From the UHGV virus genome UHGV-1374573: 45,706 bases of DNA; one strand, given 5' to 3'. Every line of letters starts with the position of its first letter. Position 1 is the first letter of the stretch. This stretch comes from a virus. Below the pieces are notes generated by a model. The model did not search any database and was not told where the DNA came from. It worked only from the letters and a program-made list of their open reading frames with translations. Of this stretch, positions 1 to 45,706 are shown piece after piece. The position numbers were made by a program, and so were the translations under genes.

Positions 1-1011
1 ATCAGCTACAATATATTCAGGTAAATGACCGTAGGTCTCTTGAATTGAATTTAAAAATGGTATCATCGTTCTTGTATCAGTCGGATTTTGATACACATTA
101 TAAGATAAAACGAATTGAGAATTTGTCGCTATTTGTAAATTATAACCTGGCTTGAGTTGTCCATTTTTCATATGATCTTCTTTCATTCTCATAAATGTGG
201 CATCATGATCTGTTTTAGAATAACTATTTCTATCCTTTAAAATAGATTTTTGGACGTCGTATTTATGCTTTCGCCCAGAGTAATCATTAATTTGCTTTTT
301 ATATTGTTTAATTTTAGTTCTTTTGAGCCGTATTTGTTTTCTTATTTTAGTACATTTTTCATTATCGATATGTTGATTTAAATCTTCGATTTCTTTATCC
401 AAATGACTACCAATCAAATCTATTTCTTCCTTTGTTAAGTCATTATCGTGATCTTTTTTAATCTCAGGTATGATTTTATTTGTTACCAATTCATGATAGA
501 GTGCTTTAGAATCTTCATTCATCTTTGTCTCATGGTTTTGAATACTCTTTTTCCATACAAATGTATATCGATTGGCATTCGCCTCAACTTTCGTACCATC
601 AATAAAAATGGTTTGATCATCTATAAGATGTTGTTTCAAACACTGACTATGAAATTGAATAAATAATGATTCTAATAAAGCATCTACTTTTGGATTGACT
701 CTAAATCGATTAATCGTTTTATAAGAAGGCTTTTGATTTTGTGATAACCACATCATCCGGATGCTATCATTAAGTAATTTTTCTATCTTACGTCCTGAAA
801 ACACAGATTGTGTGTAGGCATATAGAATGACTTTTAACATCATTTTGGGATGGTACGAGGTTGCACCACGATGATGTCTGAATTCATCGAATTCAGTTTT
901 AGGAATTGTTTCTACAATATCATTGACATGTCGTGAAATATCATTTGTGGGGATAAGAACTGAAGTTTCCAATGGTAGAGTAAGTTGAGTCATGTTATAA
1001 TCTTTATACAT
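1..1011 (-). CDS. IS1182-family DDE transposase, N-terminal 337 codons (ATG at 1011). The ORF runs off the window start and continues in frame at 45706..45047
   Basis: The reverse-complement translation is [41 protein letters not shown]...PEYIVAD. A GAGGTG RBS lies 7 nt upstream of the ATG. The ORF is still open at window position 1, which is why it is absent from the ORF track. Confidence 0.8.
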
Positions 1012-1217
1012 AAGGCACCTCGTTAATTTAGTTTAGTGACGTTTATTAAATTATACGAAAGTGCCTTATTTTTTTAAAGTATTTCAATGTAAAATTACAT
1101 ATAAATACAAAGTATTTTGGCGAGACTCTTGAGGGAACAGGACAAGCTGAAGACTACAGGCTGAAGCTGTCCCCTAAGAAAGCGAGCCAACAATACGGAG
1201 TATTGTAAATAAAGAAG

Positions 1218-1251
1218 CCAGTAAATGAATTTGTTAAAACTCATTTACTGG
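1218..1251 (-). terminator. Perfect 11-bp stem-loop (CCAGTAAATGA/TCATTTACTGG, 12-nt loop) in the IS leader, followed on the minus strand by a T-rich tract. Likely a read-through barrier upstream of tnp
   Basis: Inverted repeat read directly from the sequence. IS elements commonly carry such terminators inside their ends. Confidence 0.4.
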
Positions 1252-1265
1252 CTATTTCTCTAGGG

Positions 1266-1281
1266 TTTATGTCCCAGACTC
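1266..1281. repeat. IS terminal inverted repeat (int-proximal end)
   Basis: 15 of 16 positions match the reverse complement of 45051-45066. Confidence 0.7.
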
Positions 1282-1319
1282 TTATTATTTTTTTACTTTT
1301 TTAAGGAGGAACACGGAAA

Positions 1320-2369
1320 ATGGCAACATTTACAGTAACAAAACGCAAAAATAAGACAAGCTCATCATGGCAATACGATGTTAAACACCCTAGTTTGAAA
1401 TCTGGCAAAAAACGTAAATCTGGATTTAAAACAAAAGCTGAGGCTACAAACGCAGCACAACAATTAATTAGAGATTTAGAAGATGGCAACAACATTGAAG
1501 ATAATAAAAAGTTCGTTGACTACTACGATGACTGGATAAAAATTAAGAACAAGAAACAGTTGTCTAGCAAACAATTCTACTGGTATGAAAGATCGATTAA
1601 ATTATTCAGTGAGTATTTCGGAGAAAATATGTTAGTTAAAAATATCACACGTAGTGAGTATCAAAAGTTTTTAAATCAATACGCACAAGGTCACACTGAT
1701 GAAACAGTAAGAAAAGTTCACGGTTGTCTTGCTAGATGTATTAGAGACGCGTTATACGATGGCTATTTGAAGAAAGACCCTACTTATAATGTAAATATCA
1801 AAGGGACTGAAAAAGCTAAAGATGAGAAATTTAAGTTTATTACGATAAAAGACTATTTAAACTTGCTAGATTATTTCAAGAAAAGAGATGAAGAAAGTTA
1901 TGTTTTGCTATATCTATTAGGCATTACTGGCGCAAGATATAGCGATGTCATCAATATGACTTACAAAGATCTAAACAAAGCGAATGGCATAATTCATTTG
2001 CCTGGAACGAAAACAAAGAATTCAAAACGTGATGTAGAAGTAAATTCAAAAGATATCATGCACATAAATTCAAAATTAGCTAAAATGCCACGTAGAATTG
2101 ATGGCAAGTTATTCTCGGTTAGTCATACATCAGTAAGTAAAGCATTCAGAAAAGCAAAAGAAGTGATAGGATTAAACGATAATAATATAACTCCCTATTC
2201 ACTCAGACATACGCACACATCTTACTTACTATCTAAAGGCATACCAATCGAGTACATAAGTAAACGTTTAGGTCACGCTACTATATCACAAACGTTAGAT
2301 ACGTATTCACATTTATTAGAAGAACATAAAAAAGAGCAAGGTCAACGTGTCAGAGAAATATTCTCTTGA
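1320..2369 (+). CDS. int: Tyrosine recombinase / phage integrase
   Basis: 349 aa. C-terminal catalytic motifs: R (YSLRHTH), H-x-x-R (GHATISQTLDTYSHLL), Y. AGGAGG RBS 8 nt upstream. Located at the lysogeny end, next to the attP-like repeats. Confidence 0.9.
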   Translation: MATFTVTKRKNKTSSSWQYDVKHPSLKSGKKRKSGFKTKAEATNAAQQLIRDLEDGNNIEDNKKFVDYYDDWIKIKNKKQLSSKQFYWYERSIKLFSEYFGENMLVKNITRSEYQKFLNQYAQGHTDETVRKVHGCLARCIRDALYDGYLKKDPTYNVNIKGTEKAKDEKFKFITIKDYLNLLDYFKKRDEESYVLLYLLGITGARYSDVINMTYKDLNKANGIIHLPGTKTKNSKRDVEVNSKDIMHINSKLAKMPRRIDGKLFSVSHTSVSKAFRKAKEVIGLNDNNITPYSLRHTHTSYLLSKGIPIEYISKRLGHATISQTLDTYSHLLEEHKKEQGQRVREIFS

Positions 2370-2386: not shown

Positions 2387-2446
2387 CTCTCTCGAAAGCC
2401 TGTCATATCAACGGTATAGTACGGAAACGGAGGGATAAAAATAAAT

Positions 2447-5037: not shown

Positions 5038-5546
5038 TATTCATTACCTCCAGTAGTGTCAATCCAAATTTTAGTTGTATCAGTCGGTGCGTTTTCTCCA
5101 ATGACAAAATTTTCTTCGCTTTCAGTTTGATTCTTAATCAATCCATTTTTTACACCATATTCAATTATCTCTTGCCATAAGTCATGGTTTTGTGTGTTGA
5201 TTAATTGTCTACCAATCACACTCTCTGTCACTTGAATTTTTGCTTTATTGTCAGACGGGAATACATACTTGTTATCAACCCATATTTCTAATGAATACGT
5301 GTTTGCAGGGATAATCTGATTGATTACAACATCGCACACATAGGCATTGTCATATTGCCTAACTGTAGTGTCGTAGATATATTTGACACCTGTACTGTCA
5401 GTGAGAAAAACTTTTGCAGGTAATCCGTCTAGTTTTAAGTCGTCGTTGTTAGTGTCAGATAAGATGTATCGCATGTGTGATAAGTCACCTTGTTTAATGC
5501 GATTGCCGTCTTGTGAGTCATTTAAATTAAGTACATTTATTAACAT
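5037..5546 (-). CDS. Hypothetical tail-associated protein
   Basis: 169-aa ORF downstream of the virion-associated hydrolase. Confidence 0.5.
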   Translation of the reverse strand: MLINVLNLNDSQDGNRIKQGDLSHMRYILSDTNNDDLKLDGLPAKVFLTDSTGVKYIYDTTVRQYDNAYVCDVVINQIIPANTYSLEIWVDNKYVFPSDNKAKIQVTESVIGRQLINTQNHDLWQEIIEYGVKNGLIKNQTESEENFVIGENAPTDTTKIWIDTTGGNE

Positions 5547-5598: not shown

Positions 5599-7401
5599 TT
5601 ATCTATATTTATCTCTGATATAATACATACCTTTTAATCCTACTTTTTTGTATAAACTGTTTATTGTTGTTGCTTGGAAATTACACCACTCAATAGCAGT
5701 AGCGTACTGCATACGACCTGGATTTTTAGGGTTCCAACGCATTCGATATAAAGTATTCTTTCCTTTATTAAAGAATTGTTTTCTAACGAACTTAGCGCCA
5801 CCTATAATACCGTTACGTGGACTCGTCCAACCTTGTCGTTTGGCGTATGCTATAGAAGCATTAGGGTTATTGTCATATGCTGCAATACCAAAGTAGTTAT
5901 AAATACCATAACGTCCACTAGCAAAGTTACTACGTCCATATCCACTCTCTAAGAATGCGTGAGCAATTAAATATATTTCGTTAACGTTGTATTTCTTACA
6001 ACCGTCTGCGAAAGCTTTACCTTGACCGGATAAAGTACCTTTACCTTTAAGTATCTTATTCAACTTACTTACTGGTATACCTTGATACTTACCTAAATCC
6101 AACATTTGATACCTTTGTACTGAACTATTCCATATAGTGTTAGGGTTCATATACTTACTTGTTTGTGACCTAGAAGCATTGCCCCAACCCCAACTGTAAG
6201 ATTTTTGAGGCATACCATGTGCCATTTGCGCGTTCAGTGCTTGTTGGAAAGTATATTTACTTTTCTCTACAACTACACGAGGTTTATTCGAAGTTCTGTT
6301 TGTTGTTTTGCTTTTTTTGTCTGTCGGTTTGTCGTTCTGTTCAGGGTTATCGACCGAAGTTTTAGGTTTAATCTTTATGGTTGTCTTTGTAGTTGTTGTG
6401 GTAATCGTTTCTGTGAGTAATTTATCTCTTTTTAAATATAAACCTATTATTTTCTTTTCAACTTCTTTATATTTACTTTCATCAGGAATACCGTTTTTGA
6501 TTAAGTCGTAATTAATTAAATCTTTCATAGAACGCCATATATTAGGGTCTGCTTTGATTGATGATTCAGATAGTTTTACCTTACTCCAACTTAGCAACCA
6601 AACGCCGTAGATTAACGCTCTGATTTGATTGAGCATGAATTGCCGTTTACTCTCTGTTTGTCCTCCACAAACTTCCATAACAAGCCAACCTGGATGTTCT
6701 GGCGCTTCTTCTGAATCAGGTCTAGGCGTCCATACACGCTCACGGTCTATATATACATGAGGGTATTCATCCTCATTTACATATTTATTACGTTGTAAAT
6801 ATAATTCTTCAACAGAACGCATATGTGTACTCTCTTTGATATATATACCTTTTACTTTCCCTATCAACTTTTGACCTTCAACCATATAATGATAAATGTA
6901 CTCCAAATCATCGTCTAAATCATATGCGAATGATGTATAGGAAACTTTAGTAACCTCTTTGGTTATAGGTTTCGTTTGTTCTTTTTTGTTTTTAGGAGTG
7001 TTGTCATTAGAGGGTTTAGACGGTGTGTTACTTGATTTAGATGGTTTCTTAGTTTCTGCATGATAAGGAGGTCTGACGAACCCACTTATACCATAGTATG
7101 TGTGTTTTTCTAACGAACCAGGAGAACCGGTATAACCGTTGGAATTTCGCCAATTTTGGTCCACACTGGTGAAGTAACTCTTGTTAGATGGACCTACTAC
7201 AACAGCTGTATGTCCTGTACCATTATTATAGGAACCCTTTCCCCAAACTGCCATGTCACCAGGTTTCGGAACAAAGTTTCTAGTATTTCTATAAAATTTA
7301 AATCCTCTAGGGTATCTATACCATGCCATAGCTATAGCGTTTCCTGTTGTTTTAAAATGCCAATATCTATTGAAAATGTAGTTTGGTAAATCCCAACATT
7401 G
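5599..7401 (-). CDS. Tail-associated peptidoglycan hydrolase (CHAP + GH73 glucosaminidase), exon 2. Spliced product is 636 aa
   Basis: The frame is open upstream of the annotated ATG at 7329 as far as 7401 and encodes QCWDLPNYIFNRYWHFKTTGNAIA, the CHAP catalytic-Cys motif, with no in-frame start codon. The C-terminus is GH73-like (YLIAHAFLESGYG...). Ends at the stop at 5599. Confidence 0.8.
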   Translation of the reverse strand, partial: QCWDLPNYIFNRYWHFKTTGNAIAMAWYRYPRGFKFYRNTRNFVPKPGDMAVWGKGSYNNGTGHTAVVVGPSNKSYFTSVDQNWRNSNGYTGSPGSLEKHTYYGISGFVRPPYHAETKKPSKSSNTPSKPSNDNTPKNKKEQTKPITKEVTKVSYTSFAYDLDDDLEYIYHYMVEGQKLIGKVKGIYIKESTHMRSVEELYLQRNKYVNEDEYPHVYIDRERVWTPRPDSEEAPEHPGWLVMEVCGGQTESKRQFMLNQIRALIYGVWLLSWSKVKLSESSIKADPNIWRSMKDLINYDLIKNGIPDESKYKEVEKKIIGLYLKRDKLLTETITTTTTKTTIKIKPKTSVDNPEQNDKPTDKKSKTTNRTSNKPRVVVEKSKYTFQQALNAQMAHGMPQKSYSWGWGNASRSQTSKYMNPNTIWNSSVQRYQMLDLGKYQGIPVSKLNKILKGKGTLSGQGKAFADGCKKYNVNEIYLIAHAFLESGYGRSNFASGRYGIYNYFGIAAYDNNPNASIAYAKRQGWTSPRNGIIGGAKFVRKQFFNKGKNTLYRMRWNPKNPGRMQYATAIEWCNFQATTINSLYKKVGLKGMYYIRDKYR

Positions 7402-43393: not shown

Positions 43394-43422
43394 TTGATAT
43401 ACGATTTTTCGCATGGTATTAT
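43394..43422 (+). promoter_or_regulatory. Sigma-A-type promoter reading toward cI (-35 TTGATA, 17-nt spacer, -10 TATTAT)
   Basis: Hexamers read from the sequence. Followed by a GAGGTAA RBS and the cI ATG at 43455. Confidence 0.5.
43400..43413. promoter_or_regulatory. Operator 3 (degenerate): TACGATTTTTCGCA, inside the spacer of the cI promoter
   Basis: 10 of 12 half-site positions match. Centre-to-centre spacing from operator 2 is 63 bp. Confidence 0.45.
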
Positions 43423-43454: not shown

Positions 43455-44066
43455 ATGACTAAAGAAAAAGATTTAAAACGACTTATGGAATTGAAATCTG
43501 GGAGTATAAAAGCTTTTTCAAAAGAAATTGGTTTAGCTTATACAACTGTTAGATCTATTTTAGAAAGAGGAGTATTTAATGCTAAGGTAGAAAATGTCAT
43601 CAAAATTTGTAAAGGGTTAAATATTAAACCAGAGGAAATTATGGATATCGAGCAACCTCAACTAGAAACCCTACCAGTCAAAAAGATTCCAGTTGTTTCA
43701 AAAATATCTGCAGGCTTACCTATCTATAGTGAAGAAAATTTAGTTGATTACATATACTTCGCTACTAAAAATCTTAATTCTGACAAAGAAGAATTTGGTT
43801 TGAGAGTGTCTGGCGATAGCATGGATAAAATTTTCCAAGAAAACGATGTAGTTGTAGTCGAAAAAGATTCTATAGTAGAAAATGGTCAGTTGGGCGTCGT
43901 TATGGTTAATGGTTATAACGCTACTGTTAAACGAGTTAGATATAACAAGAATCAAATTATCTTAATTCCAGAATCAAACAACCCAGAACATTTACCTCAA
44001 GTTTACGGAGAAGATGACGAAGTTAAAATAATTGGTAGAGTTGTAGCAAGTCAAAAACTGTTTTAA
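43455..44066 (+). CDS. cI: CI-like repressor (HTH_XRE plus S24 LexA-type peptidase domain)
   Basis: 203 aa. N-terminal HTH. C-terminal GDSM (catalytic Ser) and ...VKRV... (catalytic Lys). Divergent from cro across the operators. Confidence 0.85.
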   Translation: MTKEKDLKRLMELKSGSIKAFSKEIGLAYTTVRSILERGVFNAKVENVIKICKGLNIKPEEIMDIEQPQLETLPVKKIPVVSKISAGLPIYSEENLVDYIYFATKNLNSDKEEFGLRVSGDSMDKIFQENDVVVVEKDSIVENGQLGVVMVNGYNATVKRVRYNKNQIILIPESNNPEHLPQVYGEDDEVKIIGRVVASQKLF

Positions 44067-44121
44067 TAAGCGTCCTTTGTGGCGCTTTAATATAAATATT
44101 TATTCAGAGGAGAAATGTAAA

Positions 44122-45046: not shown

Positions 45047-45706
45047 TTATGAGTCCGGGACATAAAGTTCTTGGATAAGTGAAAAAAAGACAATTTCTAT
45101 TGAAATAATATAGAAATTGTCTTTTTTATAAATTTTTTGATTATTTTCAGCTCGTTGAGCTACTACTTTTCTTATATTAAGTGCCATTAATACAAAACCA
45201 AGTTCTCTTTTGACTTTATTGAGTCCTCGGACAGACATCCGAGTGAAACCCAAAATAGCCTTCATAAATCCAAAAACAGGTTCCACATCAATTTTTCTTT
45301 GACTGTAGATATTTTTTGTTTCTGGTTCTGAAAGCTTTTTGTTAATTTGGGATTTAAAATATTCCCAGTTATAATTCTTCATTATTTTTTTGTTTGTTTT
45401 TGAATTGAAGTTCATACATTGATTTTTCAGAGGACATTCTGAACAATCATCACATTCATATAATTTGAAGTCTCGCTTATAACCATACTTATCATGACGA
45501 TAGGCATATCTTTTAAAACCTAGCCGTTTATTATTCGGACAAATGAATTCGTCATTAATTTCGTCATAGTTCCAATTTTGAGTATTAAAGATGTCACTTT
45601 TATATTTTTTAGTTTTATCTTTTATAAACATTCCATATGTTATGAGTGGCGTTCGATTAAAGTCATCTATAATTGCCTTATAATTTGATTCACTACCATA
45701 ACCTGC
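45047..45706 (-). CDS. IS1182-family DDE transposase, C-terminal 219 codons. The 5' part of this gene is at window positions 1011..1
   Basis: rc translation from 45706: AGYGSESNYKAIIDDFNRTPLITYGMFIKDK ... EPVFGFMKAILGFTRMSVRGLNKVKRELGFVLMALNIRKVVAQR ... LYVPDS*. It is in frame with the ORF ending at position 1. Confidence 0.8.
   Translation of the reverse strand, partial: AGYGSESNYKAIIDDFNRTPLITYGMFIKDKTKKYKSDIFNTQNWNYDEINDEFICPNNKRLGFKRYAYRHDKYGYKRDFKLYECDDCSECPLKNQCMNFNSKTNKKIMKNYNWEYFKSQINKKLSEPETKNIYSQRKIDVEPVFGFMKAILGFTRMSVRGLNKVKRELGFVLMALNIRKVVAQRAENNQKIYKKDNFYIISIEIVFFSLIQELYVPDS
45047..45706 (-). mobile_element. IS1182-family insertion sequence, part 2 (3' third of tnp plus a terminal IR at 45051-45066). 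The whole element is about 1.94 kb and wraps across the window ends
   Basis: IR GAGTCCGGGACATAAA overlaps the tnp stop. It pairs with the IR at 1266-1281. Confidence 0.7.

Follow-up and report, generated by a model that had tools for sequence, protein, structure and literature searches.

An IS1272-type insertion sequence in place of a terminator-like hairpin ahead of the integrase gene in a temperate phage of Staphylococcus epidermidis

An insertion sequence between the lipoprotein and integrase genes

The virus genome UHGV-1374573 (45,706 bp, referred to below at its full length as the window) is a seamless circle and belongs to a Rockefellervirus-like temperate siphovirus of Staphylococcus epidermidis. 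Its lysogeny region encodes a cI/LexA-like repressor, a lipoprotein of the DUF5067 family and a tyrosine integrase (Int), all on the + strand (Table 1). Between the lipoprotein gene and the integrase gene (int) lies an insertion sequence (IS), which runs across the junction of the two window ends. The IS starts 5 bp past the lipoprotein stop codon and ends 38 bp ahead of the int ATG, and the short leader left in front of int holds its ribosome binding site (RBS). The first-pass annotation of the window had placed the IS in the same interval, about 34-38 bp from the int ATG, and these coordinates hold (IS end at 1281, ATG at 1320).

Table 1. Features of the lysogeny region and of the inserted element in the window, in the order of the circle
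Feature	Position	Strand	Remarks
Promoter-like site upstream of the cI-type repressor gene	43394..43422	+	TTGATA-17-TATTAT with TG; also in BE21
cI/LexA-like repressor	43455..44066	+	Helix-turn-helix and Peptidase_S24
Lipoprotein gene, DUF5067 family, 307 aa	44122..45045	+	Stop TAA 45043-45045; phrog_5610
IS1272-type element, whole	45051..45706 + 1..1281, across the window junction	transposase on -	1,937 bp
IS1272-type element, right part	45051..45706	-	Right inverted repeat (IRR) 45051-45066; 3' part of the transposase gene
IS-internal A-run/hairpin/T-run	45083..45127		18 pairs; -19 and -18 kcal/mol, one value per strand; some 30 nt inward of IRR
IS1272-type element, left part	1..1281	-	5' part of the transposase gene, ATG at 1012; left inverted repeat (IRL) 1266-1281
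Transposase promoter-like site	1078..1050	-	From the promoter scan
IRL-proximal hairpin	1216..1253	-	17 pairs, -26 kcal/mol, followed by TCTTTATTT
Surviving int leader	1282..1319	+	T-run of the lost putative terminator (TTATTATTTTTTTAC TTTTTT) and RBS AAGGAGG (1303-1309)
Tyrosine integrase gene (int), 349 aa, intact	1320..2369	+	ATG 1320-1322
attP core, approximate	2415..2437		Integrated prophages match up to about 2436 (…ACGGAAACGGAGGGAT)

The IS contains a transposase open reading frame (ORF) of 556 aa on the - strand, which remains in frame across the window junction (…PEYIVAD/AGYGSES…). Since both this ORF and the IS are continuous over the junction, the window closes seamlessly as a circle. 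The transposase matches the NCBIfam model NF033551 "IS1182 family transposase" with 447 bits (cut-off 270), the match stopping at residue 520 of 556, and the Pfam families DDE_Tnp_1, DDE_Tnp_1_6 and DUF772. The terminal inverted repeats are 16 bp each, IRR reading GAGTCCGGGACATAAA and IRL TTTATGTCCCAGACTC; 15 of the 16 positions match when IRR is compared with the reverse complement of IRL, GAGTCTGGGACATAAA. All 1,937 bp of the IS align at 95.8% identity to IS1272 copies found on many staphylococcal plasmids, and with such a full-length alignment the match to IS1272 is not due to chance. The pAMT2 copy, at this same 95.8% identity, adjoins fabI and is the IS1272 of TnSha1. The threshold used by ISfinder for isoforms of one IS is 95% nucleotide identity. 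By these sequence features the element is of the IS1272 type and belongs to the IS1182 family, and it looks active, its ORF and inverted repeats being intact. Neither the exact full-length transposase sequence nor its end-truncated fragment was found in the protein collection.

It should also be noted that the IS itself supplies no stop codon for the transposase ORF. The ORF reads through the IS-internal hairpin near IRR and through IRR itself, and its TAA stop (45047-45049) is supplied by the flank outside the IS, one base from the lipoprotein stop codon on the other strand. A transposase transcript ending at the IS-internal hairpin would be without a stop codon. The annotated transposase coding sequence of pAMT2 likewise extends 43 nt past the end of the IS.

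The IS occupies the place of a 15-bp palindrome

The flanks of the IS are 98-100% identical to the corresponding sequences of the IS-free phages BE21, BE01, PG-2021_91 and phiIPLA5 and of prophages with an identical Int; with BE21, identity is 100% over 1,651 bp on the left and 98.1% on the right. The gene order (cI, DUF5067 lipoprotein, hairpin, int, attP, lysin) is shared as well, except that the siblings carry a 15-bp hairpin where the window has the IS. Exactly 15 bp stand between the two flanks in all four phages. The empty site, read letter by letter in BE21, BE01 and phiIPLA5, is …CAACAATAA TTTAT GGGTACCTAGTACCC TTATTATTTTTTTAC TTTTTT AAGGAGG AACACGGAAA ATG, and the occupied site of the window is …TTTAT (IS) TTATTATTTTTTT…. 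From TTTAT-GGGTACCTAGTACCC-TTATT to TTTAT-(IS)-TTATT, the palindrome was lost from foot to foot and no part of the target was duplicated. The IS1272-type element replaced the 15-bp palindrome without a target-site duplication (TSD). A 4-bp duplication, TTAT, was considered and rejected, since the empty site too has TTAT on either side of the hairpin, both copies being native.

In the four IS-free relatives and in ten prophage loci, int lies 58-62 bp downstream of the preceding gene on the same strand, the distance between the lipoprotein gene and int being 58 bp at the BE21-type empty site. These ten are from bacterial chromosomes of about 2.4-2.6 Mb that are complete or nearly so; the assembly collection has 1,972 blocks that list the identical 349-aa Int, and many integrated S. 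epidermidis prophages encode it. Neither the IS-free relatives nor the ten loci have an xis or any other gene between the preceding gene and int, and in all ten int is without an upstream IS. The first-pass annotation had proposed that int directly follows the cI and lipoprotein genes in the uninterrupted phage, and had named a promoter and additional genes, such as xis, ahead of int in IS-free relatives as evidence to the contrary; neither was found and the proposal stands. The empty site is, however, more than plain intergenic DNA, and the same annotation had missed the conserved terminator-like hairpin and T-run that this site held.

The IS junction sequences had no exact match in IMG/VR or the JGI metagenomes. 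Two matches to a relaxed junction pattern (loci L143 and L144) were rejected as unrelated chromosomal hairpins. No record of the phage collection carries an IS more than 82% identical to that of the window.

Insertions of this type have been described before. Wan et al. (2017; PMC5678879) found three new IS1272 insertions in sibling S. aureus genomes; in each of them an inverted-repeat structure of 22-30 bp had given way to the IS and no TSD was present, and one of the three lies 66 bp downstream of lukF-PV in a PVL prophage. For this process, which they called stem-loop-replacing (IR-replacing) transposition, the authors proposed that strand transfer occurs at the 3' feet of a cruciform (PMC5678879). 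Furi et al. (2016; PMC4923244) showed that hairpins are the invariable targets of TnSha1/IS1272, that several of these are confirmed terminators, and that target sequence is lost on insertion. We re-checked the PVL case: the joined flanks of the IS in S. aureus GN1 make a query of 542 bp, and the matching stretch of IS-free PVL phages is 568 bp long, so that about 24-26 bp are missing at the occupied site of GN1. Full-length IS ends of this type in species-representative genomes very often have an outward flank starting with TTTT or TTTA, as expected if the elements occupy former terminator stems. The mode of insertion in the window is thus already published for IS1272, and implies no new mechanism and no new kind of element.

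The window element resembles the IS1272 of S. haemolyticus (TnSha1/TnSha2) in its 16-bp inverted repeats and single DDE transposase, in having inserted right behind a gene at a terminator-type hairpin, losing target sequence and producing no TSD, and in a transposase ORF that runs out through IRR into the flank. It differs from it by about 4% divergence and in its host replicon, which is a temperate phage. The whole stem-loop was removed foot to foot in the window, as in the cases of Wan et al., whereas Furi et al. describe partial deletions. IS1182-family elements have also been found in other staphylococcal temperate phages, namely the IS1272 copy P1 in the PVL prophage of S. aureus GN1 (LC086374) and the ISSau3/IS1272-like copies in phiPVL108 and phiPV83. 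As for copy P1, an inverted-repeat structure just downstream of a gene was replaced, close to the att end of the prophage. In contrast, the copies in phiPVL108, phiPV83 and PVL-Sa2GN1 are about 82% identical to the window IS, and the target in GN1 lies downstream of lukF-PV in S. aureus, whereas that in the window lies upstream of int in a phage of S. epidermidis.

A conserved terminator-like hairpin precedes int

The hairpin of BE21 has 6 pairs (4 of them G-C) and a loop of 3, starts 5 nt past the stop codon and is followed by the tail TTATTATTTT. The 2.1-kb lysogeny region of that phage has no other terminator-like site. The anatomy of the hairpin is that of an intrinsic terminator, a G+C-rich stem-loop with a direct T-run downstream of a stop codon. 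Variants of the hairpin are GGGTAG-CATGC-CTACCC (BE28 and locus L129), GGGTAG-TCCAC-CTACCC (S-CoN_Ph18), GGGTAG-CTCGC-CTACCC (S. aureus phage Henu2), GGGTAGT-TCCA-ACTACCC (locus L133), GGGTAGC-TAT-GCTGCCC (IME1354_01), GGGTAG-CCCGC-CTACCC (Mammaliicoccus phage phi6228) and GGGTAG-CCCAC-CTACCC (S-CoN_Ph25). The hairpin accompanies this type of int in Staphylococcus and Mammaliicoccus phages despite differing upstream genes. A T-rich run and then the RBS follow it in every variant, the run being TTATTATTTTTT in seven of eight. The alignment of the eight variants, a small sample, keeps all 6 pairs, with one compensatory change (C:G to G:C), one wobble and loops of 3-6 nt. The relative BM31 has no hairpin, and its int abuts the upstream ORF. 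We predict that the palindrome and the T-run form a conserved terminator-like hairpin closing the upstream gene block.

RNAalifold also predicts, in all eight variants, base pairs between the leader U-run and the region of the int RBS, AAGGAGG (alignment columns 40-62; about 1289-1311 in the window). These pairs are mostly weak U-A or U-G pairs, and they give thin support to a possible partial masking of the RBS. A second weak hairpin (44068-44087, AGCGTC-CTTTGT-GGCGCT) is present between the repressor stop codon and the lipoprotein gene of the window; judging from such sites, the lysogeny genes may be separated by a series of leaky terminators.

Predicted effect of the insertion on int transcription

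The repressor promoter is the only strong + strand candidate upstream of int. A promoter scan of BE21 revealed no sigma-70-like site between the hairpin and int, or spanning the hairpin. Phages that share the hairpin and int have unrelated sequences upstream of the hairpin, which makes a conserved dedicated int promoter unlikely. The first-pass annotation had suggested co-transcription of int with cI. Adjacency and the common strand agree with this suggestion, but a conserved terminator-like hairpin lay between the genes, and co-transcription is not a given.

The IS brings two stronger hairpins. The one close to IRR (45083-45127) looks like a bidirectional terminator, which would stop cI-lipoprotein transcripts entering the IS. 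This hairpin, and not the IRL-proximal one (1216-1253), is most likely the element that stops such transcripts. The first-pass annotation had pointed to an 11-bp perfect terminator-like hairpin between the lipoprotein gene and int. The hairpin is indeed present at the IRL end, but it has 13 perfect pairs, is strongest and has its T-run on the - strand, and is not aimed at int. On the + strand it consists of a 13-pair outer stem (-20 kcal/mol), with a short inner helix in the 12-nt loop and a poor T-run. From its orientation, it looks suited to block read-in towards the transposase gene.

It had also been suggested that int could be driven anew by an outward promoter of the IS, and that -35/-10 elements should be sought in the IS end facing int. 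The scan of 1014-1320 found no promoter-like site on the + strand, the best hexamer pairs picked by eye in the IS end and leader reach only about 6/12 matches, and a literature search for an outward promoter of IS1272 found none. An outward or hybrid promoter at the IRL end was rejected on the empty scan and the poor by-eye pairs. Similarly, no excisionase is recognisable near int or among the ORFs of the early region, the small ORFs giving only "unknown function" families in Pfam and PHROGs. The first-pass annotation was right on this point, but IS-free relatives are equally without a recognisable xis, and its lack is therefore not linked to the IS.

We propose, with a probability of roughly 0.85, that stem-loop-replacing IS1272 transposition took place into the terminator-like hairpin upstream of int, and that int is probably expressed much less as a result. 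As the comparison of the empty and occupied sites shows, the element transposed into GGGTACCTAGTACCC by the stem-loop-replacing route, the hairpin being removed from foot to foot. In the intact phage, int would have no promoter of its own in the 38-bp leader, and would most likely be transcribed from the cI/lipoprotein promoter(s) by partial read-through of a weak terminator. In the window, transcripts heading for int would meet a much stronger bidirectional terminator-like hairpin close to IRR, then some 1.9 kb over which transcription from the transposase promoter-like site would run against them, and finally the second strong hairpin close to IRL. The insertion has probably uncoupled int from the cI promoter, its only evident upstream promoter. 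The RBS and an intact coding sequence of int survive, with a probably much lower expression, and the expected result would be poor integration after infection and not a locked-in prophage. As for reduced int expression taken by itself, we would put the odds at roughly even or somewhat better.

Several observations weigh against this proposal. The native hairpin is weak: the 57-nt stretch folds at -9.8 kcal/mol, with z = -1.1 against shuffles. The IS contains weak promoter-like sites on the + strand from which int might be transcribed, the best being TTGGGA-17-TATAAT (45347-45375, 10/12 matches). Furthermore, the molecule is in the attP form. Beyond position 2436 or so, integrated prophages continue into tRNA-like host sequence, while the window continues as phage DNA into the lysin gene; with this phage-phage junction, the window carries attP and not attL/attR. 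The phage has thus excised at least once or propagates without integrating, which limits the severity of any int defect, or else means that the IS arrived late.

The same facts may be read as a sign that the insertion is functionally neutral, int still being transcribed from IS promoters antisense to the transposase gene and through the IRL-proximal hairpin, or from an unrecognised promoter in the leader. The IS has five + strand sites at 9/12 matches (115, 214, 483, 572 and 741) besides the one at 10/12, the IRL-proximal hairpin offers a large loop and a poor T-run to + strand transcription, and the phage retains an intact int, RBS and attP. We find this reading possible but doubtful, as promoter-like sites are no more frequent than in shuffled sequences (14 vs 13.1±3.9; 12 vs 14.0±3.8), no + strand site of the IS lies within 250 bp of int, and the pairs found by eye are as poor as stated above. 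The view of the first-pass annotation was another, namely an integration-deficient circular episome or a prophage locked in place by the IS. The physical separation of int from every upstream + strand promoter and the closure of the window as a circle agree with this view. However, the attP junction contradicts a locked prophage, any complete assembly of an excised phage is expected to close as a circle, so that circularity is no sign of an episomal lifestyle, and IS-free relatives isolated from virions share the int-attP-lysin order. We consider both of its variants unlikely.

The lost palindrome itself might have been an operator bound by a protein, or a site with a recombination-related role in int regulation, and its loss would then deregulate int, possibly upwards. 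Palindromes are typical of operators, and the outer GGGTA…TACCC is invariant in the eight variants but for the wobble. The free length and sequence of the loop, the compensatory change and the wobble fit better an RNA/DNA hairpin, and the palindrome is always placed as in an intrinsic terminator, a few nt past the stop codon of the upstream gene and with a T-run immediately behind it; an operator is thus rather improbable. Finally, a host IS repeat might have been mis-threaded into the phage contig during assembly: staphylococci carry IS1272 in multiple copies, and no second instance of the junction turned up in the collections searched. Such an artefact is very hard to reconcile with the signature of IS1272 at this site, that is, both junctions exactly at the feet of the palindrome, loss of the palindrome and no TSD, which no mis-join would give. 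The transposase ORF and both inverted repeats are also intact, and the circle closes in frame.

One could speculate further, with some reserve, that the hairpin and its T-run act as a tuned attenuator metering int from the repressor operon. The IS would then be a natural knockout producing a non-integrating phage (abortive or carrier-state lysogeny), and the phage would ferry an intact IS1272 between S. epidermidis strains. In any case, the window provides a clean and precisely resolved case of stem-loop-replacing IS1272 transposition in a coagulase-negative staphylococcal phage, and indicates that an intact IS1272 can be carried, and possibly spread, by such phages. The conserved terminator-like hairpin directly before int in many Staphylococcus and Mammaliicoccus phages deserves notice as well. 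The phage with the IS and its IS-free siblings are a ready-made pair for studying int expression in this group.

Genome context and attachment site

The window is mosaic but collinear with the Rockefellervirus phages BE28, phiIPLA5, BE01, BE21 and PG-2021_90/91, with 92-97% identity over most modules. Its genome (45.7 kb) is larger than those of the relatives (42.2-44.6 kb), and would be 43,784 bp long if the IS were swapped back for the hairpin. The family of the lipoprotein was assigned by a PF16729 match on the product of identical length in the relatives. The int leader is identical to that of BE21. Int exhibits the catalytic domain PF00589 (Phage_integrase) and the SAM-like/arm-binding domains PF13102 and PF14657, and matches the integrase family phrog_1 with E = 1.6e-74.

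In most of the ten prophage loci, Int is located at the edge between prophage and host, next to tRNA-like sequence and comK. The attP core of the window lies about 50-70 bp past the int stop codon. In integrated relatives (for instance, positions 6100-6290 of locus L127), the att site is followed by what appear to be tRNA 3' ends on the opposite strand and then by comK. From these sequences, the phage group probably integrates at a tRNA gene next to comK.

In S-CoN_Ph25, deposited as "complete", the homologous int (1238-2288 of locus L140) is annotated as two coding sequences, 1238-1957 and 2004-2288, which suggests that the integrase of this phage is disrupted.

Related inverted repeats in other genomes

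A scan of genome contigs for the 16-mer inverted repeats returned many chance matches outside Staphylococcaceae, and only loci of staphylococci, Mammaliicoccus and Macrococcus were used. Short hairpins made of two IS1272-type inverted repeats with almost nothing between them were seen in Macrococcus, S. edaphicus and Mammaliicoccus (L075, 746-792; L065, about 5150-5190; L006 and L007; L143, 4545-4605). An example from Macrococcus brunensis reads GAGTCTGGGACATAAA-15 nt-TTTATGTCCCAGACTC. Flanked by A-runs and T-runs, these hairpins look like intrinsic terminators. They could be remnants similar to miniature inverted-repeat transposable elements, or native palindromes that the IS ends mimic.

Nine loci of Staphylococcus borealis (L011, L023, L042, L059, L069, L095, L096, L109 and L119) have a repeated sequence, …GTCAGCTACTGCGAATTTGCAAAATAGC…ATTATATTA, directly followed by a single IS1272-type inverted repeat (TTTATGTCCCRGACTC), which mostly has no partner within the 8-kb locus. 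The repeated sequence differs from both ends of the window IS, and may be another element using the same terminal repeat.

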